From: Isurus oxyrinchus
Taxonomy: Eukaryota
Assembly: GCA_026770705.1 (NCBI GenBank)
Contig: JANJGN010000163.1
Location: forward strand, 744,001 to 808,000
Direction: 5' to 3'
Length of the DNA: 64,000 nt
Shown: positions 1 through 60,128 of the stretch, one piece after another
Numbering within the stretch: the first letter of the stretch is position 1
Layout of the letters: each line of letters starts with the position of its first letter
The notes under the pieces: model-generated
The model's input: only the letters and a program-made list of their open reading frames with translations
Told to the model about the DNA's origin: nothing
Databases searched by the model: none
Translations under genes and position numbers: made by a program

Positions 1-3000
1 TGTCACTACTAGACACTCCATGTTTCACTACTGGACACGCCATGTGTCACTACTGGACATTCCATGTGTCACTACTGGACACTCTATGTATAATTACTGA
101 ACTCTCCGTGTGTCACTACTGAACTCGCCAATGGTCACTACTGGACACTCCATGTGTCACTACTGAACTCTCCATGTGTCACTACTGAACTCTCCATGTG
201 TCACTACTGGACACTCCATGTGTCACTACTGGACACTCCATGTGTCACTACAGAAGTCTCCACGTGTCACTACTAAACTCTCCACGTGTCACTACTGGAC
301 ACTCCATGTGTCACTACTGGACACTCCATGTGTCACTACTGAACTCTCCATGTGTCACTACTGAACTCTCCATGTGTCACTACTGGACACTCCATGTGTC
401 ACTACTGGACACTCCATGTGTCACTACAGAAGTCTCCACGTGTCACTACTGAACTCTCCATGTGTCACTACTGGACATTCCATGTGTCACTTCTGGACAC
501 TCCATGTGTCACTACTGAACTCTCCATGTGTCACTACTGAACTCTCCACGTGTCACTACTGGACACTCAACGTTTCACTAGTGGACTCTCCTCTGTCACT
601 ACTGAACTCTCCATGTGTCACTACTGAACTCTCCCTGTGTAACTACTGAACACTCCATGTGTCACTGCTGAAATCTCCATGTGTCACTTCCGGACACTCC
701 ATGTTTCACTACTGGACACTCCATGTGTGACTGCTGAACTCTCCATGTGTCACTACTGAACTCTCCATGTGTCACTATTGGACACTATATGTGTCACTAC
801 TGGACACTCCATCTGTCACTACTGAACTCTCCATTTGTCACTACTGAACTCTCCATGTGTCACTACTGGACACTCCATGTGTCACTACTGAACTCTCCAT
901 GTGTCATTAGTGAACACTCCATGTGTCACTACTGGACACTCCATGTGTCACTACTAGACACTCCATGTGTCACAACTGAACTCTCCTTGTGTCACTACTA
1001 GACACTCCATGTGTCACAACTGAACTCTCCTTGTGTCACTACTGGACACTCCATGTGTCACTACTGGACAGTCCATGTGTCACTACTGAACTCTCCATGT
1101 GTCACTACTGAACTCTCCATGTGTCACTACTGGACACTCCATGTGTCACTACTGAACTCTCCATGTGTCACTACTGGACACTCCATGTGTCACTACTGAA
1201 CTCTCCTTGTGTCACTACTCGACACACCATGTATCACTACTGAACGCTCCATGTGTCACTACTGGATACTCCATGTGTCACTACTGAACTCTCCATGTGT
1301 CACTACAGGACATTCCATGTGCCACTACTGAACTCTCCATGTGTCACTACTGGACACTCCACGTTTCACTACTAGACACTCCATGTGTCTCTACTGGACA
1401 TTCCATGAGTCACTACTGAACTCTCCATGTGTCACTACTGGACACTCCACGTGTCACTACTAGACACTCCATGTGTCTCTACTGGACATTCCATGAGTCA
1501 CTACTGAACTCTCCATGTGTCACTACTGGACACGCCATGTGTCACTACTAGACACTCCATGTGTCACTACTGGACACGCCATGTGTCACGACTGGACATT
1601 CCATGTGTCACTACTGAACTCTCCATGTGTCACTACTGAACTCTCCATGTGTCACTACTCGACACTACATGTGTCACTACTGAACTCTCCATGTATTGCT
1701 ACTGAACTCTCCATGTGTCACTACTGAACTCCCCATGTGTCACTAATGAACTCTCCATGTGTTACTACTGGACACCCCATGTGTCACTACTGAACTCTCC
1801 ATGTGTCACTACTGAACTCTCCACGTGTCACTACTGGACACTCCACGTTTCACTACTGGACTCTCCTCTGTCACTACTGAACTCTCCATGTGTCACTACT
1901 GAACTCTCCCTGTGTAACTACTGAACACTCCATGTGTCACTGCTGAAATCTCCATGTGTCACTTCCGGACACTCCATGTGTCACTACTGGACACTCCATG
2001 TGTGACTGCTGAACTCTCCATGTGTCACTACTGAACTCTCCATGTGTCACTATTGGACACTATATGTGTCACTACTGGACACTCCATCTGTCACTACTGA
2101 ACTCTCCATTTGTCACTACTGAACTCTCCATGTGTCACTACTGGACACTCCATGTGTCACTACTGAACTCTCCATGTGTCATTACTGAACACTCCTTGTG
2201 TCACTACTAGACACTCCATGTGTCACAACTGAACTCTCCTTGTGTCACTACTAGACACTCCATGTGTGACAACTGAACTCTCCTTGTGTCACTACTGGAC
2301 ACTCCATGTGTCACTACTGGACAGTCCATGTGTCACTACTGAACTCTCCATGTGTCACTACTGAACTCTCCATGTGTCACTACTGGACACTCCATGTGTC
2401 ACTACTGAACTCTCCATGTGTCACTACTGGACACTCCATGTGTCACTACTGAACTCTCCTTGTGTCACTACTCGACACTCCATGTATCACTACTGAACGC
2501 TCCATGTGTCACTACTGGACACTCCATGTGTCACTACTGAACTCTCCATGTGTCACTACAGGACATTCCATGTGCCAATACTGAACTCTCCATGTGTCAC
2601 TACTGGACACTCCACGTGTCACTACTAGACACTCCATGTGTCTCTACTGGACATTCCATGAGTCACTACTGAACTCTCCATGTGTCACTACTGGACACTC
2701 CACGTGTCACTACTAGACACTCCATGTGTCTCTACTGGACATTCCATGAGTCACTACTGAACTCTCCATGTGTCACTACTGGACACTCCATGTGTCACTA
2801 CTAGACACTCCATGTGTCACTACTGGACACGCCATGTGTCACGACTGGACATTCCATGTGTCACTACTGAACTCTCCATGTGTCACTACTGAACTCTCCA
2901 TGTGTCACTACTCGACACTACATGTGTCACTACTGAACTCTCCATGTATTGCTACTGAACTCTCCATGTGTCACTACTGAACTCCCCATGTGTCACTACT

Positions 3001-6000
3001 GAACTCTCCATGTGTTACTACTGGACAGCCATGTGTCACTACTGAACTCTCCATGTGTCACTACTGTACTCTCCATGAGTCACTACTGGACACTCCATGT
3101 GTCACTACTGAACTCTCCATGTGTCACTACTGGACACTCCATGTGTTACTACTGGACACTCCATGTGTCCTACAGGACACTCCATGTGTCACTACTGAAC
3201 TCTCCATGTGTCACTACTGGACACTCCATGTGTCAGTGCTCGAAACTCCATGTGTCACTACTGAACTCTCCATGTGTCACTGCTGAACTCTCCATGTGTC
3301 ACTACTGAACTCTCCATGTGTCACTATTGGACACTATATGTGTCACTACTGGACACTCCATCTGTCACTACTGAACTCTCCATGTGTCACTACTGAACTC
3401 TACATGTGTCACTACTGGACACTCCATGTGTCACTACTGAACTCTCCATGTGTCATTACTGAACACTCCATGTGTCACTACTGGACACTCCATGTGTCAC
3501 AACTGAACTCTCCTTGTGTCACTACTAGACACACCTTGTGTCACAATTGAACCCTCCTTTTGTCACTACTGGACACTCCATGTGTCACTACTGAACTCTT
3601 CATGTGTCACTACTGGACACTCCATGTGTCACTACTGAACTCTCCATGTGTCACTACTGAACTCTCCATGTGTCACTACTGGACACTCTATGGGTCAGTA
3701 CTGGACATGACATGTGTCACTACTGGACATTCCATGTGTCACTACTGGACACTCTATGTATCATTACTGAACTCTCCGTGTGTCACTACTGAACTCGCCA
3801 TGTGTCACTGCTGGACACTCCATGTGTCACTACTGAACTCTCCATGTGTCACTACTGAACTCTCCATGTGTCACTACTGGACACTCCATGTGTCACTACT
3901 GGACACTCCATGTGTCACTACAGAAGTCTCCACGTGTCACTACTGAACTCTCCACGTGTCACTACTGGACACTCCATGTGTCACTACTGGACACTCCATG
4001 TGTCACTACTGAACTCTCCATGTGTCACTACTGAACTCTCCATGTGTCACTACTGGACACTCCATGTGTCACTACTGGACACTCCATGTGTCACTACAGA
4101 AGTCTCCACGTGTCACTACTGAACTCTCCATGTGTCACTACTGGACACTCCATGTGTCACTTCTGGACACTCCATGTGTCACTACTGAACTCTCCATGTG
4201 TCACTACTGAACTCTCCACGTGTCACTACTGGACACTCCACGTTTCACTACTGGACTCTCCTCTGTCACTACTGAACTCTCCATGTGTCACTACTGAACT
4301 CTCCCTGTGTAACTACTGAACACTCCATGTGTCACTGCTGAAATCTCCATGTGTCACTTCCGGACACTCCATGTGTCACTACTGAACTCTCCATGTGTCA
4401 CTACTAGACACTCCATGTTTCACTACTGGACACGACATGTGTCACTACTGGACATTCCATGTGTCACTACTGGACACTCTATCTATCATTACTGAACTCT
4501 CCGTGTGTCACTACTGAACTCGCCATGTGTCACTGCTGGACACTCCATGTGTCACTACTGAACTCTCCATGTGTCACTACTGGACACTCCATGTGTCACT
4601 ACTGGACACTCCATGTGTCACTACAGAAGTCTCCACGTGTCACTACTGAACTCTCCACGTGTCACTACTGGACACTCCATGTGTCACTACTGGACACTCC
4701 ATGTGTCACTACTGAACTCTCCATGTGTCACTACTGAACTCTCCATGTGTCACTACTGGACACTCCATGTGTCACTACTGGACACTCCATGTGTCACTAC
4801 AGAAGTCTCCAAGTGTCACTACTGAACTCTCCATGTGTCACTACTGGACACTCCATGTGTCACTTCTGGACACTCCATGTGTCACTACTGAACTCTCCAT
4901 GTGTCACTACTGAACTCTCCACGTGTCACTACTGGACACTCCACGTTTCACTACTGGACTCTCCTCTGTCACTACTGAACTCTCCATGTGTCACTACTGA
5001 ACTCTCCCTGTGTAACTACTGAACACTCCATGTGTCACTGCTGAAATCTCCAAGTGTCACTTCCGGACACTCCATGTGTCACTACTGGACACTCCATGTG
5101 TGACTGCTGAACTCTCCATGTGTCACTACTGAACTCTCCATGTGTCACTATTGGACACTGTATGTGTCACTACTGGACACTCCATCTGTCACTACTGAAC
5201 TCTCCATATGTCACTACTGAACTCTCCATGTGTCACTACTGGACACTCCATGTGTCACTACTGAACTCTCCATGTGTCATTACTGAACACTCCATGTGTC
5301 ACTTCTGGACACTCCATGTGTCACTACTAGACACTCCATGTGTCACAACTGAACTCTCCTTGTGTCACTACTAGACACTCCATGTGTCACAACTGAACTC
5401 TCCTTGTGTCACTACTGGACACTCCATGTGTCACTACTGGACAGTCCATGTGTAACTACTGAACTCTCCATGTGTCACTTCTGAACTCTCCATGTGTCAC
5501 TACTGGATACTCCATGTGTCACTACTGAACTCTCCATGTGTCACTACTGGACACTCCATGTGTAACTACTGTACTCTCCTTGTGTCACTACTCGACACTC
5601 CATGTATCACTACTGAACGCTCCATGTGTCACTACTGGACACTCCATGTGTCACTACTGAACTCTCCATGTGCCACTACTGGACATTCCATGTGCCACTA
5701 CTGAACTCTCCATGTGTCACTACTGGACACTCCACGTGTCACTACTAGACACTCCATGTGTCTCTACTGGACATTCCATGAGTCACTACTGAACTCTCCA
5801 TGTGTCACTACTGGACACTCCACGTGTCACTACTAGACACTCCATGTGTCTCTACTGGAAATTCCATGAGTCACTACTGAACTCTCCATGTGTCACTACT
5901 GAACTCTCCATGTGTCACTACTGGACACTCCATGTGTCACTACTAGACACTCCATGTGTCACTACTGGACACGCCATGTGTCACGATTGGACATTCCATG

Positions 6001-9000
6001 TGTCACTACTGAACTCTCCATGTGTCACTACTGAACTCTCCATGTGTCACTACTCGACACTACATGTGTCACTACTGAACTCTCCATGTATTGCTACTGA
6101 ACTCTCCATGTGTCACTACTGAACTCCCCATGTGTCACTACTGAACTCTCCATGTGTCACTACTGGACACTCCATGTGTCACTACTGAACTCTCCATGTG
6201 TCACTACTGAACTCTCCATGAGTCACTACTGGACACTCCATGTGTCACTACTGAACTCTCCATGTGTCACTACTGGACACTCCATGTGTTACTACTGGAC
6301 ACTCCATGTGTCCTACAGGACACTCCATGTGTCACTACTGAACTCTCCATGTGTCACTACTGGACACTCCATGTGTCACTGCTCGACACTCCATGTGTCA
6401 CTACTGAACTCTCCATGTGTCACTACTGGACACTCCATGTGTCACTAATGGACTCTCCATGTGTCACTACTGGACACTCCATCTGTCACTGCTGAACTCT
6501 CCATGTGTCACTACTAAACTCTCCATGTGTCACTACTGGACACTCCATGTGTCACTACTGGACACTCCATGTGTCACTACGGGGCACTCCATGTGTCACT
6601 ACTGAACTCTCCATGTGTCACTACTAGACACTCCATGCATCACTACTGAACTCTCCTTGTGTCACTGCTGGACACTCCATGTGTCACTAATGAACTCTCC
6701 ATGTGTCACTACTGGACACTCCATGTGTCACTACTAGACCCTCCATGTTTCACTACTGGACACGCCATGTGTCACTACTGGACATTCCATGTGTCACTAC
6801 TGGACACTCTATGTATCACTACTGAACTCTCCGTGTGTCACTACTGAACTCTACATGTGTCACTACTGGACACTCCATGTGTCACTACTGAACTCTCCAT
6901 GTGTCACTACTCGACAATCCATGTATCACTACTGAACGTTCCATGTGTCACTACCGGACATTCCATCTGTCACTACTGAACTCTCCATGTGTCACTACTC
7001 GACACTCCATGTGTCACTACTGGACACTCCATGTGTCACTACTGAAATCTCCATGTGTCACTACTGAACTCTTCATGAGTCACTACTGGACACTCTATGT
7101 ATCACTACTGAACTCTCCGTGTGTCACTACTGAACTCTACATGTGTCACTACTGGACACTCCATGTGTCACTACTGAACTCTCCATGTGTCACTACTCGA
7201 CAATCCATGTATCACTACTGAACGTTCCATGTGTCACTACCGGACATTCCATGTGTCACTACTGAAATCTCCATGTGTCACTACTGGACACTCCATGTGT
7301 TACTACTGGACACTCCATGTGTCCTACTGGACACTCCATGTGTCACTACTGAACTCTCCATGTGTCACTACTGGACACTCCATGTGTCACTGCTCGACAC
7401 TCCATGTGTCACTACTGAACTCTCCATGTGTCACTACTGGACACTCCATGTGTCACTATTGGACTCTCCATGTGTCACTTCTGGACACTCCATCTGCCAC
7501 TGCTGAACTCTCCATGTGTCACTACTAAACTCTCCATGTGTCACTACTAGACACTCCATGTGTCACTACTGGACACTCCATGTGTCACTACGGGGCACTC
7601 CATGCGTCACTACTGAACACTCCATGTGTCACTACTGGACACTCCATGTGTCACTTCTGAACTCTCCAGGTGTCACTGCTCGACAATCCATGCATCACTA
7701 CTGAACGTTCCATGTGTCACTACCGGACATTCCATGTGTCAATACTGAACTCTCCATATGTCACTACAGGACGTTCCATGTGTCACTACCGGACATTCCA
7801 TGTGTCAGTACCGGACAGTCCATGTGTCACTACTGAACTATCCATTTGTCACTACTGGACACTACACGTGTCACTACTAGACACTCCACGTGTCACTACT
7901 GAACTCTCCATGTGTCAATACTGGACACTCCATGTGTCACTACCTAAGGCTCCATGTGTCACTACTGGACACTCCATGTGTCACTACTGAACTCTCCATA
8001 TGTCACTACAGGACATTCCATGTGTCACTACCGGACACTCCATGTGTCACTACCGGACAAACCATGTGTCACTACTCGACACTCCATATGTCACTACTGA
8101 TCTCTCCATGTGCCACTACTGGACACTCCATGTGTCATTACTGGACACTCCATGTGTCACTACTGGACACTCCATGTGTCACTACTGAACTCTCCATGTG
8201 TCACTACTGAACTCTCCATGTGTCACTACTGGACACTCCATGTGTCACTACTGGACACTCCATGTGTCACTACAGAAGTCTCCACGTGTCACTACTGAAC
8301 CCTCCATGTGTCACTACTGGACACTCCATGTGTCACTTCTGGACACTCCATGTGTCACTACTGAACTCTCCATGTGTCACTACTGAACTCTCCACGTGTC
8401 ACTACTGGACACTCCACGTTTCACTACTGGACTCTCCTCTGTCACTACTGAACTCTCCATGTGTCACTACTGAACTCTCCCTGTGTAACTACTGAACACT
8501 CCATGTGTCACTGCTGAAATCTCCATGTGTCACTTCCGGACACTCCATGTGTCACTACTGGACACTCCATGTGTGACTGCTGAACTCTCCATGTGTCACT
8601 ACTGAACTCTCCATGTGTCACTATTGGACACTGTATGTGTCACTACTGGACACTCCATCTGTCACTACTGAACTCTCCATATGTCACTACTGAACTCTCC
8701 ATGTGTCACTACTGGACACTCCATGTGTCACTACTGAACTCTCCATGTGTCATTACTGAACACTCCATGTGTCACTTCTGGACACTCCATGTGTCACTAC
8801 TAGACACTCCATGTGTCACAACTGAACTCTCCTTGTGTCACTACTAGACACTCCATGTGTCACAACTGAACTCTCCTTGTGTCACTACTGGACACTCCAT
8901 GTGTCACTACTGGACAGTCCATGTGTCACTACTGAACTCTCCATGTGTCACTTCTGAACTCTCCATGTGTCACTACTGGACACTCCATGTGTCACTACTG

Positions 9001-12000
9001 AACTCTCCATGTGTCACTACTGGACACTCCATGTGTAACTACTGTACTCTCCTTGTGTCACTACTCGACACTCCATGTATCACTACTGAACGCTCCATGT
9101 GTCACTACTGGACACTCCATGTGTCACTACTGAACTCTCCATGTGTCACTACTGGACATTCCATGTGCCACTACTGAACTCTCCATGTGTCACTACTGGA
9201 CACTCCACGTGTCACTACTAGACACTCCATGTGTCTCTACTGGACATTCCATGAGTCACTACTGAACTCTCCATGTGTCACTACTGGACACTCCACGTGT
9301 CACTACTAGACACTCCATGTGTCTCTACTGGACATTCCATGAGTCACTACTGAACTCTCCATGTGTCACTACTGAACTCTCCATGTGTCACTACTGGACA
9401 CTCCATGTGTCACTACTAGACACTCCATGTGTCACTACTGGACACGCCATGTGTCACGACTGGACATTCCATGTGTCACTACTGAACTCTCCATGTGTCA
9501 CTACTGAACTCTCCATGTGTCACTACTCGACACTACATGTGTCACTACTGAACTCTCCATGTATTGCTACTGAACTCTCCATGTGTCACTACTGAACTCC
9601 CCATGTGTCACTACTGAACTCTCCATGTGTCACTACTGGACACTCCATGTGTCACGACTGAACTCTCCATGTGTCACTACTGAACTCTCCATGAGTCACT
9701 ACTGGACACTCCATGTGTCACTACTGAACTCTCCATGTGTCACTACTGGACACTCCATGTGTTACTACTGGACACTCCATGTGTCCTACAGGACACTCCA
9801 TGTGTCACTACTGAACTCTCCATGTGTCACTACTGGACACTCCATGTGTCACTGCTCGACACTCCATGTGTCACTACTGAACTCTCCATGTGTCACTACT
9901 GGACACTCCATGTGTCACTAATGGACTCTCCATGTGTCACTACTGGACACTCCATCTGTCACTGCTGAACTCTCCATGTGTCACTACTAAACTCTCCATG
10001 TGTCACTACTGGACACTCCATGTGTCACTACTGGACACTCCATGTGTCACTACGGGGCACTCCATGTGTCACTACTGAACTCTCCATGTGTCACTACTAG
10101 ACACTCCATGTATCACTACTGAACTCTCCTTGTGTCACTACTGGACACTCCATGTGTCACTAATGAACTCTCCATGTGTCACTACTGGACACTCCATGTG
10201 TCACTACTAGACCCTCCATGTTTCACTACTGGACACGCCATGTGTCACTACTGGACATTCCATGTGTCACTACTGGACACTCTATGTATCACTACTGAAC
10301 TCTCCGTGTGTCACTACTGAACTCTACATGTGTCACTACTGGACACTCCATGCGTCACTACTGAACTCTCCATGTGTCACTACTCGACAATCCATGTATC
10401 ACTACTGAACGTTCCATGTGTCACTACCGGACATTCCATCTGTCACTACTGAACTCTCCATGTGTCACTACTCGACACTCCATGTGTCACTACTGGACAC
10501 TCCATGTGTCACTACTGAAATCTCCATGTGTCACTACTGAACTCTTCATGAGTCACTACTGGACACTCTATGTATCACTACTGAACTCTCCGTGTGTCAC
10601 TACTGAACTCTACATGTGTCACTACTGGACACTCCATGTGTCACTACTGAACTCTCCATGTGTCACTACTCGACAATCCATGTATCACTACTGAACGTTC
10701 CATGTGTCACTACCGGACATTCCATGTGTCACTACTGAAATCTCCATGTGTCACTACTGGACACTCCATGTGTTACTACTGGACACTCCATGTGTCCTAC
10801 TGGACACTCCATGTGTCACTACTGAACTCTCCATGTGTCACTACTGGACACTCCATGTGTCACTGCTCGACACTCCATGTGTCACTACTGAACTCTCCAT
10901 GTGTCACTACTGGACACTCCATGTGTCACTATTGGACTCTCCATGTGTCACTTCTGGACACTCCATCTGCCACTGCTGAACTCTCCATGTGTCACTACTA
11001 AACTCTCCATGTGTCACTACTAGACACTCCATGTGTCACTACTGGACACTCCATGTGTCACTACGGGGCACTCCATGCGTCACTACTGAACACTCCATGT
11101 GTCACTACTGGACACTCCATGTGTCACTTCTGAACTCTCCAGGTGTCACTGCTCGACAATCCATGCATCACTACTGAACGTTCCATGTGTCACTACCGGA
11201 CATTCCATGTGTCACTACTGAACTCTCCATGTGTCACTACTCGACACTCCATGTGTCACTACTGGACTCTCCATGTGTCACTACTGAACTCTCCATGTGT
11301 CACTAGTGGACACTCCATATGTCACTACTGGACACTCCATGTGTCACTACTGGACACTCCATGTGTCACTACTTGACACTCCATGTGTCACTACTGAACT
11401 CTCCATGTGTCACTACTGGACACTCCATGTGTCACTACTGGACACTATATGTGTCAGTAATGGACACTCCATGTGTCAATACTGAACTCTCCATATGTCA
11501 CTACAGGACGTTCCATGTGTCACTACCGGACATTCCATGTGTCAGTACCGGACAGTCCATGTGTCACTACTGAACTATCCATTTGTCACTACTGGACACT
11601 ACACGTGTCACTACTAGACACTCCACGTGTCACTACTGAACTCTCCATGTGTCAATACTGGACACTCCATGTGTCACTACCTAAGGCTCCATGTGTCACT
11701 ACTGGACACTCCATGTGTCACTACTGAACTCTCCATATGTCACTACAGGACATTCCATGTGTCACTACCGGACACTCCATGTGTCACTACCGGACAAACC
11801 ATGTGTCACTACTCGACACTCCATATGTCACTACTGATCTCTCCATGTGCCACTACTGGACACTCCATGTGTCATTACTGGACACTCCATATGTCACTAC
11901 TGGACACTCCATGTGTCACTACTGATCTCTCCATGTGTCACTACTGAACTCTCCATGTGTCACTACTGGACATTCCATGTGCCACTACTGAACTCTCCAT

Positions 12001-39000: not shown

Positions 39001-42000
39001 TGAACTCTCCATGTGTCACTACTGGACACTCCATGTGTCACTACTGAACTCTCCATGTGTCACTACTCGACAATCCATGTATCACTACTGAACGTTCCAT
39101 GTGTCACTACCGGACATTCCATGTGTCACTACTGAACTCTCCATGTGTCACTACTGGACACTCCATGTGTCACTACCGGACACTCCATGTGTCACTACCG
39201 GACATTCCATTGTCACTACTGAACTCTCCATTTGTCATTACTGGACACTACACGTGTCACTACTAGACACTCCACGTGTCACTACTGAACTCTCCATGTG
39301 TCACTACTGGACAGTCCATGTGTCACTACCTAAGTCTCCATGTGTCACTACTGGACACTCCATGTGTCACAACTGAACTCTGCATATGTCACTACAGGAC
39401 ATTCCATGTGTCACTATCGGACACTCCAAGTGTCACTACCGGACAGTCCATGTGTCACTACTCGACACTCCATGTGTCACTACTGATCTCTCCATGTGCC
39501 ACTACTGGACACTCCATGTGTCACTACTCGACACTCCATGTGTCACTACTGATCTCTCCATATGTCACTACTGGACACTCCATGTGTTACTACTGGACAC
39601 TCCATGTGTCCTACAGGACACTCCATGTGTCACTACTGAACTCTCCATGTGTCACTACTGGACACTCCATGTGTCACTGCTCGACACTCCATGTGTCACT
39701 AATGAACTCTCCATGTGTCACTACTGGACACTCCATGTGTCACTACTGGACACTCCATGTGTCACTACTGGACAATCCACGTTTCACTACTGGACTCTCC
39801 TCTGTCACTACTGAAATCTCCATGTGTCACTACTGAACAAACCATGTGTAACTACTGAACACAGCATGTGTCACTACTGAAATCTCCATGTGTCACTTCC
39901 GGACACTCCATGTGTCACTACTGGACACTCCATGTGTCACTGCTGAACTCTCCATGTGTCACTACTCTACTCTCCATGTGTCACTATTGGACACTATATG
40001 TGTCACTACTGGACACTCCAACTATCACTACTGAACTCTCCATGTGTCACTACTGAACTCTCCATGTGTCACTACTGGACACTCCATGTGTCACTACTGA
40101 AATCTCCATGTGTCATTACTGAACACTCCATGTGTCACTACTGGACACTCCATGTGTCACTACTAGACACTCCATGTGTCACAACTGAACTCTCCTTGTG
40201 TCACTACTAGACACTCTATGTGTCACAACAGAACTCTCGTTGTGTCACTACTGGACACTCCATGTGTCACTACTGGACAGTCCATGTGTCACTACTGAAC
40301 TCTCCATGTGTCACTACTGAACTCTCCATGTGTCACTACTCGACACTCCATGTGTCACTACTGAACTCTCCATGTGTCACTACTGGACACTCCATGTGTC
40401 ACTACTGAACTCTCCTTGTGTCACTACTCGACACTCCATGTATCACTACTGAACGCTCCATGTGTCACTACTGGACACTCCATGTGTCACTACTGAACTC
40501 TCCATGTGTCACTACTGGACATTCCATGTGCCACTACTGAACTCTCCATGCGTCACTACTGGACACTCCACGTGTCACTACTAGACACTCCCTGTGTCTC
40601 TACTGGACATTCCATGAGTCACTACTGAACTCTCCATGTGTCACTACTGAACTCTCCATGTGTCACTACTGGACACTCCATGTGTCACTACTAGACACTC
40701 CATGTGTCACTACTGGAAACGCCATGTGTCACTACTGGACATTCCATGTGTCACTACTGAACTCTCCATGTGTCACTACTGAACTCTCCATGTGTCACTA
40801 CTCGACACTACATGTGTCACTACTGAACTCTCCATGTATTGCTACTGAACTCTCCATGTGTCACTACTGAACTCCCCATGTGTCACTACTGAACTCTCCA
40901 TGTGTCACTACTGGACACTCCATGTGTCACTACTGAACTCTCCATGTGTCACTACTGAACTCTCCATGAGTCACTACTGGACACTCCATGTGTCACTACT
41001 GAACTCTCCATGTGTCACTACTGGACACTCCATGTGTTACTACTGGACACTCCATGTGTCACTACTGAACACTCCATGTGTCAACACTGGACACTCCATG
41101 TGTCACTGCTCGACACTCCATGTGTCACTACTTAACTCTCCATGTGTCACTACTGGACACTCCATGTGTCACTACTGGACTCTCCATGTGTCACTACTGG
41201 ACACTCCATCTGTCACTGCTGAACTCTCCATGTGTCACTACTAAACTCTCCATGTGTCACTACTGGACACTCCATGTGTCACTACTGGACACTCCATGTG
41301 TCACTACGGGGCACTCCATGTGTCACTACTGAACTCTCCATGTGTCACTACTGGACACTCCATGTGTCACTACTGAACTCTCCATGTGTCACTACTCGAC
41401 AATCCATGTATCACTACTGAATGTTCCATGTGTCACTACCGGACATTCCATGTGTCACTACTGAACTCTCCATGTGTCACTACTGGACACTCCATGTGTC
41501 ACTACCGGACACTCCATGTGTCACTACCGGACATTCCATTGTCACTACTGAACTCTCCATTTGTCACTACTGGACACTACACGTGTCACTACTAGACACT
41601 CCACGTGTCACTACTGAACTCTCCATGTGTCACTACTGGACACTCCATGTGTCACTACCTAATTCTCCATGTGTCACTACTGGACACTCCATGTGTCAGA
41701 ACTGAACTCTGCATATGTCACTACAGGACATTCCATGTGTCACTATCGGACACTTCAAGTGTCACTACCGGACAGTCCATGTGTCACTACTCGACACTCC
41801 ATGTGTCACTACTGATCTCTCCATGTGCCACTACTGGACACTCCATATGTCACTACTCGACACTCCATGTGTCACTACTGATCTCTCCTTGTGTCACTAC
41901 TGGACACTCCATGTGTTACTAATGGACACTCCATGTGTCCTACAGGACACTCCATGTGTCACTACTGAACTCTCCATGTGTCACTACTGGACACTCCATG

Positions 42001-45000
42001 TATCACTGCTCGACACTCCATGTGTCACTACTGAACTCTCCATGTGTCACTACTGGGCACTCCATGTGTCACTACTGAACTCTCCATGTGTCACTACTGG
42101 ACATTCCATCTGTCACTGCTAAACTCTCCATGTGTCACTACTAAACTCTCCATGTGTCACCACTGGACACTCCATGTGTCACTACTGGACACTCCATGTG
42201 TCACTACGGGGCACTCCATGTGTCACTACTGAACTCTCCATGTGTCACTACTGGACACTCCATGTATCACTACTGAACTCTCCTTGTGTCACGACTGGAC
42301 ACTCCATGTGTCACTACTGAACTCTCCATGTGTCACTACTGGACACTCCATGTGTCACTACTGAACTCTCCATGTGTCACTACTGAACTCTCCATGTGTC
42401 AAAATTGGACACTCCATGGGTAACTACTGGACACTCCATGTGTCACTACTAGTCCCTCCATGTTTCACTACTGGACACGCGATGTGTCACTACTGGACAT
42501 TCCATGTGTCACTACTGGACACTCTATGTATCACTACTGAACTCACCGTGTGTCACTACTGAACTGGCCATGTGTCACTACTGGACACTCCATGTGTCAC
42601 TACTGAACTCTCCATGTGTCACTACTGAACTCTCCATGTGTCACTACTGGACACTCCATGTGTCACTACTGGACACTCCATGTGTCACTACTGAACTCTC
42701 CATGTGTCACTACTGAACTCTCCATGTGTCACTACTGGACACGCCATGTGTCATTACTGGACACTCCATGTGTCACTACTGAACTCTCCATGTGTCACTA
42801 CTGAACTCTCCACGTGTCACTACTGGACAATCCACGTTTCACTACTGGACTCTCCTCTGTCACTACTGAACTCTCCATGTGTCACTACTGAACAAACCAT
42901 GTGTAACTACTGAACACAGCATGTGTCACTACTGAAATCCCCATGTGTCACTTCCGGACACTCCATGTGTCACTACTGGACACTCCATGTGTCACTGCTG
43001 AACTCTCCATGTGTCACTACTCTACTCTCCATGTGTCACTATTGGACACTATATGTGTCACTACTGGACACTCCATCTGTCACTACTGAACTCTCCATGT
43101 GTCACTACTGAACTCTCCATGTGTCACTACTGGACACTCCATGTGTCACTACTGAACTCTCCATGTGTCATTACTGAACACTCCATGTGTCACTACTGGA
43201 CACTCCATGTGTCACTACTAGACACTCCATGTGTCACAACTGAACTCTCCTTGTGTCACTACTAGACACTCCATGTGTCACAACTGAACTCTCGTTGTGT
43301 CACTACTGGACACTCCATGTGTCACTACTGGACAGTCCATGTGTCAGTACTGAACTCTCCATGTGTCACTACTGAACTCTCCATGTGTCACTACTCGACA
43401 CTCCATGTGTCACTACTGAACTCTCCATGTGTTACTACTGGACACTCCATGTGTCACTACTGAACTCTCCTTGTGTCACTACTCGACACTCCATGTATCA
43501 CTTCTGAACGCTCCATGTGTCACTACTGGACACTCCATGTGTCACTACTGAACTCTCCATGTGTCACTACTGGACATTCCATGTGCCACTACTGAACTCT
43601 CCATGCGTCACTACTGGACACTCCACGTGTCACTGCTAGACACTCCCTGTGTCTCTACTGGACATTCCATGAGTCACTACTGAACTCTCCATGTGTCACT
43701 ACTGAACTCTCCATGTGTCACTACTGGACACTCCATGTGTCACTACTAGACACTCCATGTGTCACTACTGGACACGCCATGTGTCACTACTGGACATTCC
43801 ATGTGTTACTACTGAACTCTCCATGTGTCACTACTGAACTCTCCATGTGTCACTACTCGACACTACATGTGTCACTACTGAACTCTCCATGTATTGCTAC
43901 TGAACTCTCCATGTCTCACTACTGAACTCCCCATGTGTCACTACTGAACTCTCCATGTGTCACTACTGGACACTCCATGTGTCACTACTGAACTCTCCAT
44001 GTGTCACTACTGAACTCTCCATGAGTCACTACTGGACACTCCATGTGTCACTACTGAACTCTCCATGTGTCACTACTGGACACTCCATGTGTTACTACTG
44101 GACACTCCATGTGTCCTACTGGACACTCCATGTGTCACTACTGAACACTCCATGTGTCAACACTGGACACTCCATGTGTCACTGCTCGACACTCCATGTG
44201 TCACTACTTAACTCTCCATGTGTCACTACTGGACACTCCATGTGTCACTACTGGACTCTCCATGTGTCACTACTGGACACTCCATCTGTCACTGCTGAAC
44301 TCTCCATGTGTCACTACTAAACTCTCCATGTGTCACTACTGGACACTCCATGTGTCACTACTGGACACTCCATGTGTCACTACGGGGCACTCCATGTGTC
44401 ACTACTGAACTCTCCATGTGTCACTACTGGACACTCCATGTGTCACTACTGAACTCTCCATGTGTCACTACTCGACAATCCATGTATCACTACTGAACGT
44501 TCCATGTGTCACTACCGGACATTCCATGTGTCACTACTGAACTCTCCATGTGTCACTACTGGAAACTCCATGTGTCACTACCGGACACTCCATGTGTCAC
44601 TACCGGACATTCCATTGTCACTACTGAACTCTCCATTTGTCACTACTGGACACTGCACGTGTCACTACTAGACACTCCACGTGTCACTACTGAACTCTCC
44701 ATGTGTCACTACTGGACACTCCATGTGTCACTACCTAAGTCTCCATGTGTCACTACTGGACACTCCATGTGTCACAACTGAACTCTGCATATGTCACTAC
44801 AGGACATTCCATGTGTCACTATCGGACACTCCAAGTGTCACTACCGGACAGTCCATGTGTCACTACTCGACACTCCATGTGTCACTACTGATCTCTCCAT
44901 GTGCCACTACTGGACACTCCATGTGTCACTACTGGACACTCCATATGTCACTACTGGACACTCCATGTGTCACTACTGAACTCTCCATGTGTCACTACTC

Positions 45001-48000
45001 GACACTCCATGTGTCACTGCTCGACACTCCATGTGTCACTACTGAAATCTCCATGTGTCACTACTGAACTCTCCATGTGTCACTACTGAACTCTTCATGA
45101 GTCACTACTGGACACTCCATGTGTCACAACTGAACTCTCCATGTGTCACTACTGAACTCTCCATGTGTCACTACTGGACACTCCATATGTCACTATTGGA
45201 CACTCCATGTGTCACTACTGGACACTCCATGTGTCACTACTCGACACTCCATGAGTCACTACTGGACACTCCATGTGTCACTACTGAACTCTCCATGTGT
45301 CACTACTGAACTCTCCATGAGTCACTACTGGACACTCCATGTGTCACTACTGAACTCTCCATGTGTCACTACTTGACACTCCATGTGTTACTACTGGACA
45401 CTCCATGTGTCACTACTGGACACTCCATGTGTCACTACTGAACTCTCCATGTGTCACTACTGGACACTCCATGTGTCACTGCTCGACACTCCATGTGTCA
45501 CTACTGAACTCACCATGTGTCACTACTGGACACTCCATGTGTCACTACTGGACTCTCCATGTGTCACTACTGGACACTCCATCTGTCACTGCTGAACTCT
45601 CCATGTGTCACTACTAAACTCTCCATGTGTCACTACTGGACACTCCATGTGTCACTACTGGACATTCCATGTGTCACTACGGGGCACTCCATGTGTCACT
45701 ACTGTACTCTCCATGTGTCACCACTGGACACTCCATGTGTCACTACTCGACACTCCATGTATCACTACTGAACGTTCCATGTGTCACTACCGGACATTCC
45801 ATGTGTCACTACTCAACTCTCCATGTGTCACTACTGGACACTCCATGTGTCACTACCGGACACTCCATGTGTCACTATCGGACATTCCATGTGTCACTAC
45901 TGAACTCTCCATTTGTCACTACTGGACACTACACGTGTCACTACTAGACACTCCACGTGTCACTACTGAACTCTCCATGTGTCACTACTGGACACTCCAT
46001 GCGTCACTACCTAAGTCTCCATGTGTCACTACTGGACACTCCATGTGTCACTACTGAACTCTGCATATGTCACTCCAGGACATTCCATGTGTCACTACCG
46101 GACACTCCAAGTGTCACTACCGGACAGTCCATGTGTCACTACTCGACACTCCATGTGTCACTACTGATCTCTCCATGTGTCACTACTGGACACTCCATCT
46201 GTCACTGCTGAACTCTCCATGTGTCACTACTAAACTCTCCATGTGTCACTACTGGACACTCCATGTGTCACTACTGGACACTCCATGTGTCACTACGGGG
46301 CACTCCATGTGTCACTACTGAACTCTCCATGTGTCACTACTGGACACTCCATGTATCACTACTGAACTCTCCTTGTGTCACTACTGGACACTCCATGTGT
46401 CACTACTGAACTCTCCATGTGTCACTACTGGACACTCCATGTGTCACTACTGAACTCTCCATGTGTCACTACTGAACTCTCCATGTGTCAAAACTGGACA
46501 CTCCATGGGTCACTACTGCACACTCCATGTGTGACTACTGGTCCCTCCATGTTTCACTACTGGACACGCGATGTGTCACTACTGGACATTCCATGTGTCA
46601 CTACTGGACATTCTATGTATCACTACTGAACTCTCCGTGTGTCACTACTGAACTGGCCATGTGTCTCTACTGGACACTCCATGTGTCACTACTGAACTCT
46701 CCATGTGTCACTACTGAACTCTCCATGTGTCACTACTGGACACTCCATGTGTCACTACTGCACACTCCATGTGTTACTACAGAAGTCTCCACGTCTCACT
46801 ACTGAACTCTCCACGTGTCACTACTGGACACTCCATGTGTCACTACTGGACACTCCATGTGTCACTACTGAACTCTCCATGTGTCACTACTGAACTCTCC
46901 ATGTGTCACTACTGGACACTCCATGTGTCACTACTGGACACTCCATGTGTCACTACTGAACTCTCCATGTGTCACTACTGAACTCTCCACGTGTCACTAC
47001 TGGACAATCCACGTTTCACTACTGGACTCTCCTCTGTCACTACTGAACTCTCCATGTGTCACTACTGAACAAACCATGTGTAACTACTGAACACAGCATG
47101 TGTCACTACTGAAATCTCCATGTGTCACTTCCGGACACTCCATGTGTCACTACTGGACACTCCATGTGTCACTGCTGAACTCTCCATGTGTCACTACTCT
47201 ACTCTCCATGTGTCACTATTGGACACTATATGTGTCACTACTGGACACTCCATCTGTCACTACTGAACTCTCCATGTGTCACTACTGAACTCTCCATGTG
47301 TCACTACTGGACACTCCATGTGTCACTACTGAACTCTCCATGTGTCATTACTGAACACTCCATGTGTCACTACTGGACACTCCATGTGTCACTACTAGAC
47401 ACTCCATGTGTCACTACTAGACACTCCATGTGTCACAACTGAACTCTCCTTGTGTCACTACTGGACACTCCATGTGTCACTACTGGACAGTCCATGTGTC
47501 ACTACTGAACTCTCCATGTGTCACTACTGAACTCTCCATGTGTCACTACTCGACACTCCATGTGTCACTACTGAACTCTCCATGTGTCACTACTGGACAC
47601 TCCATGTGTCACTACTGAACTCTCCTTGTGTCACTAATCGACACTCCATGTATCACTACTGAACGCTCCATGTGTCACTACTGGACACTCCATGTGTCAC
47701 TACTGAGCTCTCCATGTGTCACTACTGGACATTCCATGTGCCACTACTGAACTCTCCATGCGTCACTACTGGACACTCCACGTGTCACTACTAGACACTC
47801 CCTTTGTCTCTACTGGACATTCCATGAGTCACTACTGAACTCTCCATGTGTCACTACTGAACTCTCCATGTGTCACTACTGGACACTCCATGTGTCACTA
47901 CTAGACACTCCATGTGTCACTACTGGACACGCCATGTGTCACTACTGGACATTCCATGTGTCACTACTGAACTCTCCATGTGTCACTACTGAACTCTCCA

Positions 48001-51000
48001 TGAGTCACTACTCGACACTACATGTGTCACTACTGAACTCTCCATGTATTGCTACTGAACTCTCCATGTGTCACTACTGAACTCCCCATGTGTCACTACT
48101 GAACTCTCCATGTGTCACTAGTGGACACTCCATGTGTCACTACTGAACTCTCCATGTGTCACTACTGAACTCTCCATGAGTCACTACTGGACACTCCATG
48201 TGTCACTACTGAACTCTCCATGTGTCACTACTGGACACTCCATGTGTTACTACTGGACACTCCATGTGACCTACTGGACACTCCATGTGTCACTACTGAA
48301 CACTCCATGTGTCACTACTGGACACTCCATGTGTCACTGCTCGACACTCCATGTGTCACTACTTAACTCTCCATGTGTCACTACTGGACACTCCATGTGT
48401 CACTACTGGACTCTCCATGTGTCACTACTGGACACTCCATCTGTCACTGCTGAACACTCCATGTGTCACTACTAAACTCTCCATGTGTCACTACTGGACA
48501 CTCCATGTGTCACTACTGGACACTCCATGTGTCACTACGGGGCACTCCATGTGTCACTACTGAACTCTCCATGTGTCACTACTAGACACTCCATGTGTCA
48601 CTACTGAACTCTCCTTGTGTCACTACTCGACAATCCATGTATCACTACTGAACGTTCCATGTGTCACTACCGGACATTCCATGTGTCACTACTGAACTCT
48701 CCATGTGTCACTACTGGACACTCCATGTGTCACTACCGGACACTCCATGTGTCACTACCGGACATTCCATGTGTCACTACTTAACTCTCCATTTGTCACT
48801 ACTGGACACTACACGTGTCACTACTAGACACTCCACGTGTCACTACTGAACTCTCCATGTGTCACTACTGGACACTCCATGTGTCACTACCTAAGTCTCC
48901 ATGTGTCACTACTGGACACTCCATGTGTCACTACTGAACTCTGCATATGTCACTACAGGACATTCCATGTGTCACTATCGGACACTCCAAGTGTCACTAC
49001 CGGACAGTCCATGTGTCACTACTCGACACTCCATGTGTCACTACTGATCTCTCCATGTGCCACTACTGGACACTCCATGTGTCACTACTGGACACTCCAT
49101 ATGTCACTACTGGACACTCCATGTATCACTACTGAACTCTCCATGTGTCACTACTCGACACTCCATGTGTCACTGCTCGACACTCCATGTGTCACTACTG
49201 AAATCTCCATGTGTCACTACTGAACTCTCCATGTGTCACTACTGAACTCTTCATGTGTCACTACTGGACACTCCATGTGTCACTACTGAACTCTCCATGT
49301 GTCACTACTGAACTCTCCATGTGTCACTACTGGACACTCCATATGTCACTACTGGACACTCCATGTGTCACTACTGGACACTCCATGTGTCACTACTCGA
49401 CACTCCATGAGTCACTACTGGACAGTCCATGTGTCACTACTGAACTCTCCATGTGTCAGTACTGAACTCTCCATGAGTCACTACTGGACACTCCATGTGT
49501 CACTACTGAACTCTCCATGTGTCACTGCTCGACACTCCATGTGCTACTACTGGACACTCCATGTGTCACTACTGGACACTCCATGTGTCACTACTGAACT
49601 CTCCATGTGTCACTACTGGACACTCCATGTGTCACTGCTCGACACTCCATGTGTCACTACTGAACTCACCATGTGTCACTACTGGACACTCCATGTGTCA
49701 CTACTGGACTCTCCATGTGTCACTACTGGACACTCCATCTGTCACTGCTGAACTCTCCATGTGTCACGACTAAACTCTCCATGTGTCACTACTGGACACT
49801 CCATGTGTCACTACTGGACACTCCATGTGTCACTTCGGGGCACTCCATGTGTCACTACTGTACTCTCCATGTGTCACTACTGGACACTCCATGTGTCACT
49901 ACTCGACACTCCATGTATCACTACTGAACGTTCCATGTGTCACTACCTGACATTCCATGTGTCACTACTGAACTCTCCATGTGTCACTACTGGACACTCC
50001 ATGTGTCACTACCGGACACTCCATGTGTCACTACCGGACATTCCATGTGTCACTGCTGAACTCTCCATTTGTCACTACTGGACACTACACGTGTCACTAC
50101 TAGACACTCCACGTGTCACAACTGAACTCTCCATGTGTCACTACTGGACACTCCATGTGTCACTACCTAAGTCTCCATGTGTCACTACTGGACACTCCAT
50201 GTGTCACTACTGAACTCTCCATATGTCACTACAGGACATTCCATGTGTCACTACCGGACCCTCCATGTGTCACTACTCGACACTCCATGAGTCACTACTG
50301 GACACTCCATGTGTCACTACTGAACTCTCCATGTGTCAGTACTGAACTCTCCATGAGTCACTACTGGACACTCCATGTGTCACTACTGAACTCTCCATGT
50401 GTCACTGCTCGACACTCCTTGTGTTACTACTGGACACTCCATGTGTCACTACTGGACACTCCATGTGTCACTACTGAACTCTCCATGTGTCACTACTGGA
50501 CACTCCATGTGTCACTGCTCGACACTCCATGTGTCACTACTGAACTCACCATGTGTCACTACTGGACACTCCATGTGTCACTACTGGACTCTCCATGTGT
50601 CACTACTGGACACTCCATCTGTCACTGCTGAACTCTCCATGTGTCACTACTAAACTCTCCATGTGTCACTACTGGACACTCCATGTGTCACTACTCGACA
50701 CTCCATGAGTCACTACTGGACACTCCATGTGTCACTACTGAACTCTCCATGTGTCAGTACTGAACTCTCCATGAGTCACTACTGGACACTCCATGTGTCA
50801 CTACTGAACTCTCCATGTGTCACTGCTCGACACTCCTTGTGTTACTACTGGACACTCCATGTGTCACTACTGGACACTCCATGTGTCACTACTGAACTCT
50901 CCATGTGTCACTACTGGACACTCCATGTGTCACTGCTCGACACTCCATGTGTCACTACTGAACTCACCATGTGTCACTACTGGACACTCCATGTGTCACT

Positions 51001-52189
51001 ACTGGACTCTCCATGTGTCACTACTGGACACTCCATCTGTCACTGCTGAACTCTCCATGTGTCACTACTAAACTCTCCATGTGTCACTACTGGACACTCC
51101 ATGTGTCACTACTGGACACTCCATGTGTCACTACGGGGCACTCCATGTGTCACTACTGTACTCTCCATGTGTCACTACTGGACACTCCATGTGTCACTAC
51201 TCGACACTCCATGTATCACTACTGAACGTTCCATGTGTCAGTACCGGACATTCCATGTGTCACTACTGAACTCTCCATGTGTCACTACTGGACACTCCAT
51301 GTGTCACTACCGGACACTCCATGTGTCACTACCCGGACATTCCATGTGTCACTACTGAACTCTCCATTTGTCACTACTGGACACTACACGTGTCACTACT
51401 AGACACTCCACGTGTCACTACTGAACTCTCCATGTGTCACTACTGGACACTCCATGTGTCACTACCTAAGTCTCCATGTGTCACTACTGGACACTCCATG
51501 TGTCACTACTGAACTCTCCATATGTCACTACAGGACATTCCATGTGTCACTACCGGACCCTCCATGTGTCACTACCGGACAGTCCATGTGTCACTACTCG
51601 ACACTCCATGTGTCACTAAAGATCTCTCCATGTGCCACTACTGGACACTCCATGTGTCACTACTGGACACTCCATATGTCACTACTGGACACTCCATGTG
51701 TCACTACTGAACTCTCCATGTGTCACTACTCGACACTCCATGTGTCACTACTGGACACTCCATGTGTCACTACTGAACTCTCCTTGTGTCACTACTGAAC
51801 TCTCCATGTGTCACTACTGAACTCTTCATGAGTCACTACTGGACACTCCTTGTGTCACTACTGAACTCTCCATGTGTCACTACTGAACTCTTTATGAGTC
51901 ACCACTGGACACTCCATGTGTCACTACTGAACTCTCCATGTGTCACTACTGAACTCTCCATGTGTCACTACTGGACACTCCATCTGTCACTACTGGACAC
52001 TCCATGTGTCACTACTGAACTCTCCATGTGTCACTACTGGACACTCCATGTGTCACTACTGGACACTCCATGCGTCACTACTGAACTCTCCATGTGTCAC
52101 TACTGGACACTCCATGTGTCACTACCGGACACTCCATGTGTCACTATGGACACTCCATGTTTTACTACTGGACACTCCATGTGTCACTA
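1..52189. repeat. 22-bp satellite array, ~2370 units, extends past the left window edge
   Basis: Continuous tandem units CCATGTGTCACTACTG(GACAC/AACTC)T with point variants and occasional 21-bp units. It ends at ...gtgtcacta|ttaccggg. Confidence 0.99.
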
Positions 52190-52619
52190 TTACCGGGAAC
52201 AACACCCTTCCCGAGTGACCATCTCTTTTGGGGGGTGGGGGGTGGGACATGAGACGGGTCCGTCCCCTCAGCTGTTGGAAAGTGACCCCATAGTCCCTGT
52301 TGTTGTTGATGGGGAGGGGGGAACAGCAGGGAGCTCCCCTGCGCCCTTTGCAAACTTCTGAAACCGACCAGCACCCTTTCAGCAAAGAAATAAATCCCCA
52401 AATCAATTGCCCCCTAATGGTATTTGCTGTCTGCAATCTTGCTGCCTGCAAATTAGCGCTGGCCTTATCCGCAGTGACTGCTCTTTGAGAATAGAAACAG
52501 CCTTTTGGTGGGAAGCGCTCTGGAAATGGCCAGAGGCTTTAATTTGTCTCTTTCCAGGCACCCCTCCTTCATAGCAGCAGGACTGGAAATGTGAACCTGC
52601 TCCATGTTCCACTCCACAG

Positions 52620-52914
52620 GAATTCTGGCCTCTTATGTGGAGCAGTTCCCTTCTACCGAGTCTCTGTCAGCAGGAGAATCCACAACCCTCGAGTGCACTC
52701 TGAGCAGTACTGCATCTCGCTCCATGTCCTGGTAGACACAACAGGCAGATCGGGCAATGGAAGCTCTGTTCTATTCTGCTGGGAAAGATATGGTGACAAA
52801 TGACACCGCCGACTCTCTGAGCACCAACAGGCCCAGCGATACCCTGTTTACCCTGGAATTGAGAGGCGCCTCTCTCTCTCACGCCGCTCTCTACGTCTGT
52901 GCTTGTAGTTATTG
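52620..52914 (+). pseudogene. TRBV: TCR beta-like V exon V1, pseudogene
   Basis: Acceptor ccactccacAG at 52618-19. Reads (G)ILASYVEQFPSTESLSAGESTTLEC...SMSW*TQQ...LYVCACSY, with both Ig-V cysteines and the Trp but an in-frame TAG at 52733-35. A 23-RSS follows. The beta assignment rests on family resemblance only. Confidence 0.88.
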
Positions 52915-52953
52915 CACAGCCAGTGAGAAAGCAGATCCGCAGGCACAAAAACC
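52915..52953 (+). other. 23-RSS of V1
   Basis: CACAGCC + exactly 23 nt + consensus nonamer ACAAAAACC. Confidence 0.95.
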
Positions 52954-52986
52954 CGCATGGCATCGGTGGCCGGTTAGGGCACATTT

Positions 52987-53476
52987 CCACCTCCCCTCCC
53001 ATCCCATTCCCCATCCCCCTCCTCCCCCCTCCCCCTCCTCCCCCTCCCCTCACCCCCTACCCCTCCCCCTATCCTCCCATCCCCCTCCCCTTGCCCTCCT
53101 AACCCTCCCCTCTCCTCCCTCCCCCTCCCCTCTCCTCCCCTCCCCACGCCCCCCCTCCCCCTCCCCTCTCCCCCCTCCCCCTGCCCACCCCCCTCCCACT
53201 CCCCCTCCACCGCCTCCCCCTCCCGCACCCCTCCCCTCCCCCCTCACCAAACCCCCTCTCCCCTTACCCCCTACCCCTCCTCCCCCTCCCCTCAGCCCCT
53301 ACCCCTCCCCTATCCTCCCTTCCCCATCGCCTTGCCCCCCTCCCCTCCCCTCTCCCCCCTCCCCCTCCCCACCCCCTCCCACTCCCCCTCCCCTCGCACC
53401 CCCTCCCCCTCCCGCACCCCTCCCCTCCCCCCTCACCACACCCCCTCTCCCCCTACCCCCTACCCCTCCTCCCTAC
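52987..53476. repeat. C-rich low-complexity tract (G-rich minus strand)
   Basis: Runs of CCCCT/CCCCA for ~490 bp. Confidence 0.95.
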
Positions 53477-54668
53477 CACTACTGAACTCTCCATTTGTCA
53501 CTACTGGACACTACACGTGTCACTACTAGACACTCCACGTGTCACTACTGAACTCTCCATGTGTCACCACTGGACACTCCATGTGTCACTACCTAAGTCT
53601 CCATGTGTCACTACTGGACACTCCATGTGTCACTACTGAACTCTCCATATGTCACTACAGGACATTCCATGTGTCACTACCGGACACACCATGTGTCACT
53701 ACCGGACAGTCCATGTGTCACTAGCGGACAGTCCATGTGTCACTACTGAACTCTCCATTTGTCACTACTGGACACTACACGTGTCACTACTAGACACTCC
53801 ACGTGTCACTACTGAACTCTCCATGTGTCACTACTGGACACTCCATGTGTCACTAACTAAGTCTCCATGTGTCACTACTGGACACTCCATGTGTCACTAC
53901 TGAACTCTCCATATGTCACTGCAGGACATTCCATGTGTCACTACCGGACACTCCATGTGTCACTACCGGACAAACCATGTGTCACTACTCGACACTCCAT
54001 GTGTCACTACTGATCTCTCCATGTGCCACTACTGGACACTCCATGTGTCATTACTGGACACTCCATATGTCACTAATGGACACTCCATGTGTCACTACTG
54101 ATCTCTCCATGTGTCACTACTGAACTCTCCATGTGTCACTACTGGACATTCCATGTGCCACTACTGAACTCTCCATGTGTCACTAATGGACACTCCATGT
54201 GTCTCTACTGGACATTCCATGAGTCACTACTGAACTCTCCATGTGTCACTACTGAACTCTCCATGTGTCACTACTGGACACTCCATGTGTCACTACTAGA
54301 CACTCCATGTGGCACTACTGGACACGCCATGTGTCACTACTGGACTTTCCATGTGTCACTACTGAACTCTCCATGTGTCACTACTGAACTCTCCATGTGT
54401 CACTACTCGACACTACATGTGTCACTACTGAACTCTCCATGTATTGCTACTGAACTCTCCATGTGTCACTACTGAACTCCCCATGTGTCACTACTGAACT
54501 CTCCATGTGTCACTACTGGACACTCCATGTGTCACAACTGAACTCTCCATGTGTCACTACTGAACTCTACATGTGTCACTACTGAACTCTCCATGTGTCA
54601 CTACTGAACTCTCCATGTGTCACTACTGAACTCTCCATGTGTCACTATGGACACTCCATGTGTCACTA
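53477..54668. repeat. Second block of the 22-bp satellite, ~54 units
   Basis: Same unit and variants as the main array. It ends with the same junction (gtcactatggacac...gtcactattaccggg) as 52140-52196. Confidence 0.99.
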
Positions 54669-55394: not shown

Positions 55395-55433
55395 CACAGC
55401 CAGTGAGAAAGTGGATCCGCAGGCACAAAAACC
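55395..55433 (+). other. 23-RSS of V2
   Basis: CACAGCC + 23 nt + ACAAAAACC. Confidence 0.95.
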
Positions 55434-60079: not shown

Positions 60080-60128
60080 ATGGGCTGGACAGTGAATCTC
60101 TCTGCACTGTTGCTGCTGCTGCTACCAG
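60080..60128 (+). CDS. TRBV: V4 leader exon
   Basis: MGWTVNLSALLLLLLP + G, then donor CAG|GTTACA. It is 49 nt, phase 1, and joins 60708 in frame. Confidence 0.85.

Follow-up and report, generated by a model that had tools for sequence, protein, structure and literature searches.

A 64,000-nucleotide stretch of the genome of the shark Isurus oxyrinchus (assembly GCA_026770705.1, contig JANJGN010000163.1, here C163, positions 744,001–808,000; hereafter the window, whose own coordinates are used wherever no contig is named) opens with 52 kb of a 22-bp tandem repeat that stops shortly before a T-cell receptor (TCR) beta variable (V) exon, V1. We found that this repeat is the right-hand part of a 128,842-bp array lying in the intron between V1 and its leader exon. 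The array probably reflects neutral runaway growth of an intronic minisatellite, seeded by a stretch of a short interspersed element (SINE)-like sequence, within a duplicated TCR-beta V unit. The features at this boundary, with the evidence used for each, are as follows.

1–52189, forward strand: right-hand 52 kb of the 22-bp minisatellite array, inside the V1 leader–V intron (Tandem Repeats Finder, TRF; leader join).
52190–52619, forward strand: 3′ part of the ancestral leader–V intron (SINE-like remainder and acceptor), without a leader (alignment with a paralog on contig C31).
52620–52914, forward strand: V1, TCR-beta V exon, pseudogene with TAG (translation, V features).
52915–52953, forward strand: V1 recombination signal sequence (RSS), 23-bp spacer, consensus nonamer (motif reading).

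An earlier note on this DNA had placed the end of the array at 52189 and the start of V1 at 52620, and both positions were borne out by TRF and by our reading of the exon, which follows an acceptor AG. Within the window, TRF reported a single array of 2,374 copies with 86% matches and no indels. The full array (C163:667348–796189) comprises 5,862 copies, 76.7 kb of it lying to the left of the window, and the sequence of C163, array included, contains no N. We distinguished 492 unit types, among them two main variants and 210 singletons. Block duplications are irregular (3–14 kb), their periods vary along the array, and the longest exact internal repeat is 3,458 bp, a structure that would be expected from repeated unequal exchange and that is unlike a single looped contig error. 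CpG is depleted (observed/expected ratio 0.19). Across the 128.8 kb, AATAAA, ATTAAA and GTAAG do not occur, no RSS heptamer was found, and the splice-like sites amount to two GTGAG and two acceptor-like sequences. Since it carries no polyadenylation signal and almost no splice-like sites, the array would not, by its sequence, block a transcript. Genome-wide mapping of the 22-mer, which the earlier note had advised, was run as a search for exact 30-mers and returned 948 matches (896 on C163, 36 on C1134 and 16 on C1481), all on three TRB V contigs that carry the V1 family. The satellite is therefore private to the leader–V intron of this family, and a genome-wide or centromeric satellite is ruled out.

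The earlier note had left two possibilities, namely that the array expanded within the leader–V intron, leaving the leader beyond position 1, or that it replaced the leader. The first agrees with what we found. A 49-bp exon encoding a hydrophobic leader lies at C163:667136–667184, separated from the left end of the array by 160 bp and followed by a phase-1 GT donor at 667185; by predicted splicing it joins in frame both to V1 and to V2, a second V exon further right, and the assembled leader–V1 intron measures 129,435 bp. Replacement is refuted by the alignment of the leader, the promoter and both intron flanks with compact paralogs on C31. The alignment of the promoter, leader and 5′ intron of a C31 paralog with the C163 leader region leads directly into the first unit of the array (score 69, against 31 for the best of 200 shuffles), and the 3′ part of a 596-bp C31 intron aligns with the 430-bp flank between array and V1 (score 68, against 39 for the best of 200 shuffles). 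The assignment of the leader is thus backed not only by its position but also by homology. In agreement with the earlier note, the 430-bp gap holds no leader in a scan for an ATG followed 30–90 bp later by a GT donor. The promoter decamer was scored against a CRE (cyclic AMP response element)-like consensus. The gap has one match with two mismatches, at 52281, which we attribute to chance because the same level is reached at 44 sites in 11.8 kb. Inspection to the left of the array recovered the leader and 29 V segments, and there too the decamer-like site, which precedes the V1 leader by about 130 bp and has two mismatches to the consensus, does not exceed chance expectation; a match with one mismatch precedes V4, an intact V gene of the window. 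A 71.5-kb array of a 32-mer lies about 0.85 kb upstream of the V1 leader.

V1 itself carries an in-frame TAG (52733–52735) replacing the Tyr that follows the conserved Trp, a stop that the first reading had missed; judged by its reading frame, V1 is a pseudogene. Its RSS consists of the heptamer CACAGCC, a 23-bp spacer and the consensus nonamer ACAAAAACC. Because the exon carries a stop codon, the size of the array in this copy is likely neutral.

V1 belongs to a family of near-identical copies on C163, C1134 and C1481, in which ten V units (94–100% identity) and nine leader regions were identified. Leaders were paired with V exons over the initial 80 kb of C1134 and over 40 kb of C1481, stretches that contain all family matches on these two contigs. 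All nine leaders are followed by the 22-mer array, which is 2.2–16.8 kb long in the eight copies other than that of V1 (C163: 7205, 7205, 3752, 128842, 16804 and 3011 bp; C1134: 3203 and 2199 bp; C1481: 3362 bp), and the leader–V introns of the nine copies measure, in ascending order, 2788, 3612, 3807, 3967, 4362, 7804, 7808, 17391 and 129435 bp. The junction between array and flank is identical in 10/10 copies, and the nine leader–V copies (9/9) agree in their junctions. Seven of the ten V exons are open, the others being V1 with its stop, a frameshifted copy on C1134 and the C1481 copy with a deletion. On C163, the unit occurs as six copies that are about 98.5% identical in their unique flanks and contain, in addition to the leader, the 22-mer array and the V exon, a 32-mer array, a 44-mer array, several V4-family genes and a G-protein-coupled receptor (GPCR) gene. 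Two of them (C163:175143–346000 and 349471–525000) are 99.8–99.9% identical and would be either the products of a very recent duplication or two haplotypes placed one after the other; their 22-mer arrays differ at 1 of 7205 bases, and their 44-mer arrays measure 87.6 and 104.5 kb. In this pair, giant arrays change length fast and small ones do not. A partial V1-family exon (80% DNA identity) was also seen on the small contig C4065 (22110–22350), which carries short versions of the 56-mer and 87-mer arrays known from the start of C163.

The state before amplification appears to survive on C31, where two more distant family members have leader–V introns of 596 and 606 bp. These introns hold a SINE-like element with one unit-like stretch at the site of the array, and the consensus 22-bp unit matches the intron of the second paralog at 18 of 22 bases, a value reached by 2 of 1000 shuffles. 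A piece of this second intron gave 55 matches on many contigs, some of them isolated, dispersed copies and others tandem arrays of a 33-mer; in the former, tRNA-like A and B boxes are visible, and the alignment extends through the seed stretch. The intronic element thus resembles a dispersed tRNA-type SINE, and the unit-like stretch within it is the likely seed of the 22-mer array. The next stretch of the element gave rise to 33-mer arrays (C163:133769–136096 and 993193–1001456) that are widespread in the genome, so that one SINE-like element may have seeded two satellites.

Neutral growth would have started from an intron of ancestral type, 596–606 bp long, with a SINE-like element and one unit-like stretch where the array now stands. 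Slippage would have turned this stretch into a tandem array before the unit multiplied, because all nine leader–V copies have the array at the same junctions. The unit, 30–170 kb in size, now occurs in at least nine copies that are about 98.5% identical, and in each copy a different array is giant, having probably grown by multi-kilobase block duplication through repeated unequal exchange. As a consequence, promoters 129–132 kb from the RSS would leave V1 and V2 poorly opened for RAG and seldom used. At the mouse Tcra and Tcrb loci, as described in passages of PMC3005232, promoters control RAG1 binding locally at J (joining) and D (diversity) segments, and the V promoter is considered to direct the acetylation of V segments (PMC2212846, in part). 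Extended to the shark, this would predict that an RSS so far from its promoter is seldom used.

A 129-kb intron raises the question of whether the assembly has inflated its length or misordered its units, the real intron being a few kilobases long like those of the paralogs. The region is indeed built of units that are 98–99.9% identical, two units of C163 are 99.8% identical over 27.6 kb, as tandem haplotypes or a recent duplication would be, and C1134 and C1481 may be either alleles or paralogs of the window's unit, their 1-kb tiles matching different C163 units in turn. Set against this are the absence of N from C163, an array that is not one repeated block, as its singleton types, changing periods and short longest exact repeat testify, and junctions that match those of 10/10 and 9/9 paralogs. 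Assemblers, moreover, collapse such arrays more often than they inflate them. We therefore regard an inflated or disordered array as very improbable. A misassembled junction between satellite and V exon, the error that the earlier note had raised, is unlikely because the junction recurs in all ten copies.

Giant arrays are not peculiar to V1. Arrays longer than 1.5 kb occupy 797,283 of the 1,117,549 bp of C163 (71%), including 44-mer arrays of 87.6 and 104.5 kb, 32-mer arrays of 71.5, 48.3, 95.6 and 38.8 kb and a 56-mer array of 77.7 kb. Among 10-kb samples from 20 contigs of similar size, 13 of 20 were at least 90% tandem repeat, compared with 63 of 111 tiles of C163. Similar-sized contigs are as repeat-rich and other arrays of C163 are as large, so that giant arrays are the local background and not a mark of the V1 gene. 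Repeat-dominated regions (50–100% simple tandem repeat) are described as common in some sharks and rays in parts of two sources (PMC10620051; bioRxiv 10.1101/2025.06.08.657570). Such abundance in a rearranging locus could also mean that the arrays have a function in chromatin, as spacers or silencers, and influence which V segments are used or how the locus folds, without acting as a boundary. The repeat share of this V contig would fit such a role, as would a 36-mer array of at least 114 kb that probably fills the V–D interval and ends 23 bp from the nonamer of the D 12-RSS on C2826, and the CpG depletion of the 22-mer array is compatible with past methylation. Yet the units differ, without pattern, in which of their arrays is giant, comparable contigs without known receptor genes are just as repeat-rich, and intact V4-type genes are found no more than 8 kb from the 22-mer array. 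Any special role for the latter is further countered by the pseudogene state of V1 and by 32-, 44-, 56- and 36-mer arrays of C163 that are as large. A selected spacer or silencer function is in our judgment very unlikely, while an unselected by-product effect of the array on its neighbours may occur. The earlier suggestion that the array marks the locus boundary does not hold, since 29 V segments lie to its left and 15 to its right on the same strand.

To the right of V1, the window contains a second V exon of the family.

52986–53476, forward strand: C-rich low-complexity tract, whose end is the V1/V2 local duplication junction (TRF, self-comparison).
53477–54668, forward strand: second 22-mer array, 54 copies, before V2, without a leader (TRF, leader search).
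54669–55099, forward strand: copy of the 430-bp 3′ intron flank, 98% identical to that of V1 (alignment).
55100–55433, forward strand: V2, open-frame V exon (Pfam V-set) with a perfect 23-RSS at 55395–55433 (profile, motif).

V2 is a 98% copy of V1 with an open frame, preceded by a 54-copy array of its own and by the 430-bp flank also present at V1. It scores 47 bits against Pfam V-set, and its best PDB matches include TCR-beta chains. The leader search found none between V1 and V2, nor in the 54669–55099 flank, where a leader used by V2 transcripts would, according to the earlier note, have refuted its reading; the family has nine leaders for ten V exons, and the nearest one lies 131,915 bp upstream of V2. 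In the family tree V1 and V2 group as sisters with support 0.80, differing at 12 positions in about 800 bp; elsewhere the tree is weakly supported, and the C1481 copy with its deletion sits in it on a long branch. Given this sister relation, V2 is, on the tree, a local duplicate of V1 that did not take the leader along. The V1/V2 family shares 26% identity with the V domain of the nurse shark TCR-beta chain P0001, and no homologue was found in other species at E 0.001 in a V2 search restricted to near lengths.

V2 could nevertheless be functional if it borrowed the leader of V1: once V2 had been joined to D and J, a transcript from the distant promoter would run through 132 kb of satellite, and the leader would be spliced to V2 with V1 skipped. 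The predicted join is in frame without a stop, the RSS and acceptor of V2 conform to consensus, its YFC is nearer the canonical motif than that of the sister copies, the array is free of polyadenylation signals and strong splice sites, and between the acceptors of V1 and V2 there is just one donor-like site, a weak one. In Drosophila, Y-linked genes whose giant introns are filled with satellite are transcribed and spliced, according to parts of PMC11207136 and PMC6508613. On the other hand, the V1 acceptor comes first and would compete, the promoter-local RAG1 control described for mouse in passages of PMC3005232 predicts poor access at 132 kb, and the V1 family shows little sign of purifying selection. 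We consider such use of V2 improbable.

We retain neutral growth as the preferred explanation, and several points weigh against it. The sequence of the array is benign for transcription and splicing; V1 has an intact leader, donor, acceptor and RSS, and the frame of V2 is open, so that some use may occur. The variant count behind the scant sign of purifying selection (6 synonymous and 13 non-synonymous on 86 and 256 sites, in eight indel-free copies) is crude and small. On the 25-Mb chromosome-scale C31, one of ten 4-kb samples was wholly repeat and two of ten partly so; because C31 is array-poor and its TRB clusters are compact, the TRB cluster on C163 is unusual against that background. The SINE-like element is probably, by name, the shark HE1 element. 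HE1 is listed as a shark and ray V-SINE in part of PMC4824008.

Around the array, C163 carries 44 V-like exons on one strand (46 at a looser cut-off), and the right-hand part of the window includes the following members of the duplicated unit.

56391–57266, forward strand: 44-bp array, part of the duplicated unit, 0.9 kb here and 87.6 and 104.5 kb in two paralogous units (TRF).
58436–58735, forward strand: V3, a TRBV of the V4 family, likely a pseudogene (YYC changed to SSC, poor nonamer) (V features).
60080–61048, forward strand: V4, an intact TRBV (leader 60080–60128, 579-bp intron, V exon, 23-RSS at 61010) (gene reading).

The 579-bp intron of V4, reported in the earlier note, recurs in 18 of 18 V4-type leaders on C163, and V4 is 64% identical to P0001. 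Several V4-family copies on C163, a family that includes V3, have patches of the complementarity-determining regions in common; because these patches are shared in mixed combinations, gene conversion is suggested. A Rhodopsin-family GPCR frame (Pfam 7tm_1; C163:590273–591103) rides in the TRBV unit, with copies near 183848, 358177, 537250 and 949101 and minus-strand relatives near 141331, 577356, 832035, 925757 and 935841. Reverse-transcriptase frames (Pfam RVT_1) lie between V4-family genes in each unit (C163:930476–932920 and many copies).

The 36-mer array occupies C163:1003128–1117549 at the contig end, and 23 kb of the same 36-mer in the same orientation, with 83% of 36-mers shared, opens C2826 (35516–58551). 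There it is followed by a D segment with 12- and 23-RSS, six J segments and an open constant (C) domain that is 53% identical to P0001. A search for an exact overlap of 300 bp between the two contigs found none. They are likely adjacent, with the 36-mer array filling the V–D interval. No C exon was found on C163 or in the examined parts of C1134 and C1481. Two further compact D–J–C clusters in opposite orientation lie at C31:850000–1570000, with about 10 and 9 J-like segments, V genes of their own, several broken V4-like genes, and C domains 40–47% identical to P0001. This shark thus has at least three TCR-beta constant genes.

In its parts, the locus resembles known systems. With vertebrate TRBV genes and nurse shark P0001, it shares the phase-1 leader, a V-set exon with both Cys and the Trp, and an RSS with a 23-bp spacer, together with the D, J and C segments on C2826. 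Unlike an ordinary TRBV gene, V1 has a leader–V intron of 129 kb (against 579–606 bp in the other V genes measured here) and a stop codon, and V2 lacks a leader of its own. SINE-derived satellites of squamates (sSats), as described in parts of PMC10702118, likewise are tandem repeats from part of a SINE with locus-specific subvariants. The shark repeat differs in its 22-bp unit, in its restriction to a single intron of a single gene family, in its 5,862 units compared with 320 in the longest locus quoted there for the Indian cobra, and in the survival of the pre-amplification state in paralogs; the authors were unsure, in the same parts, whether animals other than squamates have sSats. Small exons separated by more than 100 kb of simple tandem repeat are also a feature of the Y fertility genes of Drosophila (PMC11207136, in part). 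Those genes have been shown to be transcribed and spliced, whereas the shark V1 exon is a pseudogene known from its sequence alone, in a locus that must also rearrange. Passages of the two sources on elasmobranch repeat-rich regions contained no hits to T cell receptor terms, and we found no description, in the open-licence literature, of a shark TRB locus with satellites or of a satellite-filled leader–V intron. TRBV genes, SINE-derived satellites and satellite-filled giant introns are each known; their combination was not found in that literature.

Should the V1 copy be no more than a dead gene, its 129-kb intron is a curiosity in a shark genome rich in repeats. The family nevertheless preserves a rare complete history of a satellite, with the seed in two paralogs, small arrays in eight copies and a 129-kb array in one. 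Annotators will miss such distant leaders and call these V exons leaderless. The locus also offers a natural ruler for how near a V promoter must be to its RSS, in that seven open-frame V exons, about 97% identical and with the same consensus RSS and near-identical leaders, lie 3.6, 3.8, 4.4, 7.8, 7.8, 17.4 and 132 kb from their leaders. Giant satellites make up 70% of this receptor locus, and more than 114 kb of repeat would separate its last V from D. Should V2, against our expectation, be rearranged there and expressed with V1 skipped, from a leader at a distance of 132 kb and through an intron of pure satellite, then V(D)J recombination in this lineage would not be under promoter-local control.

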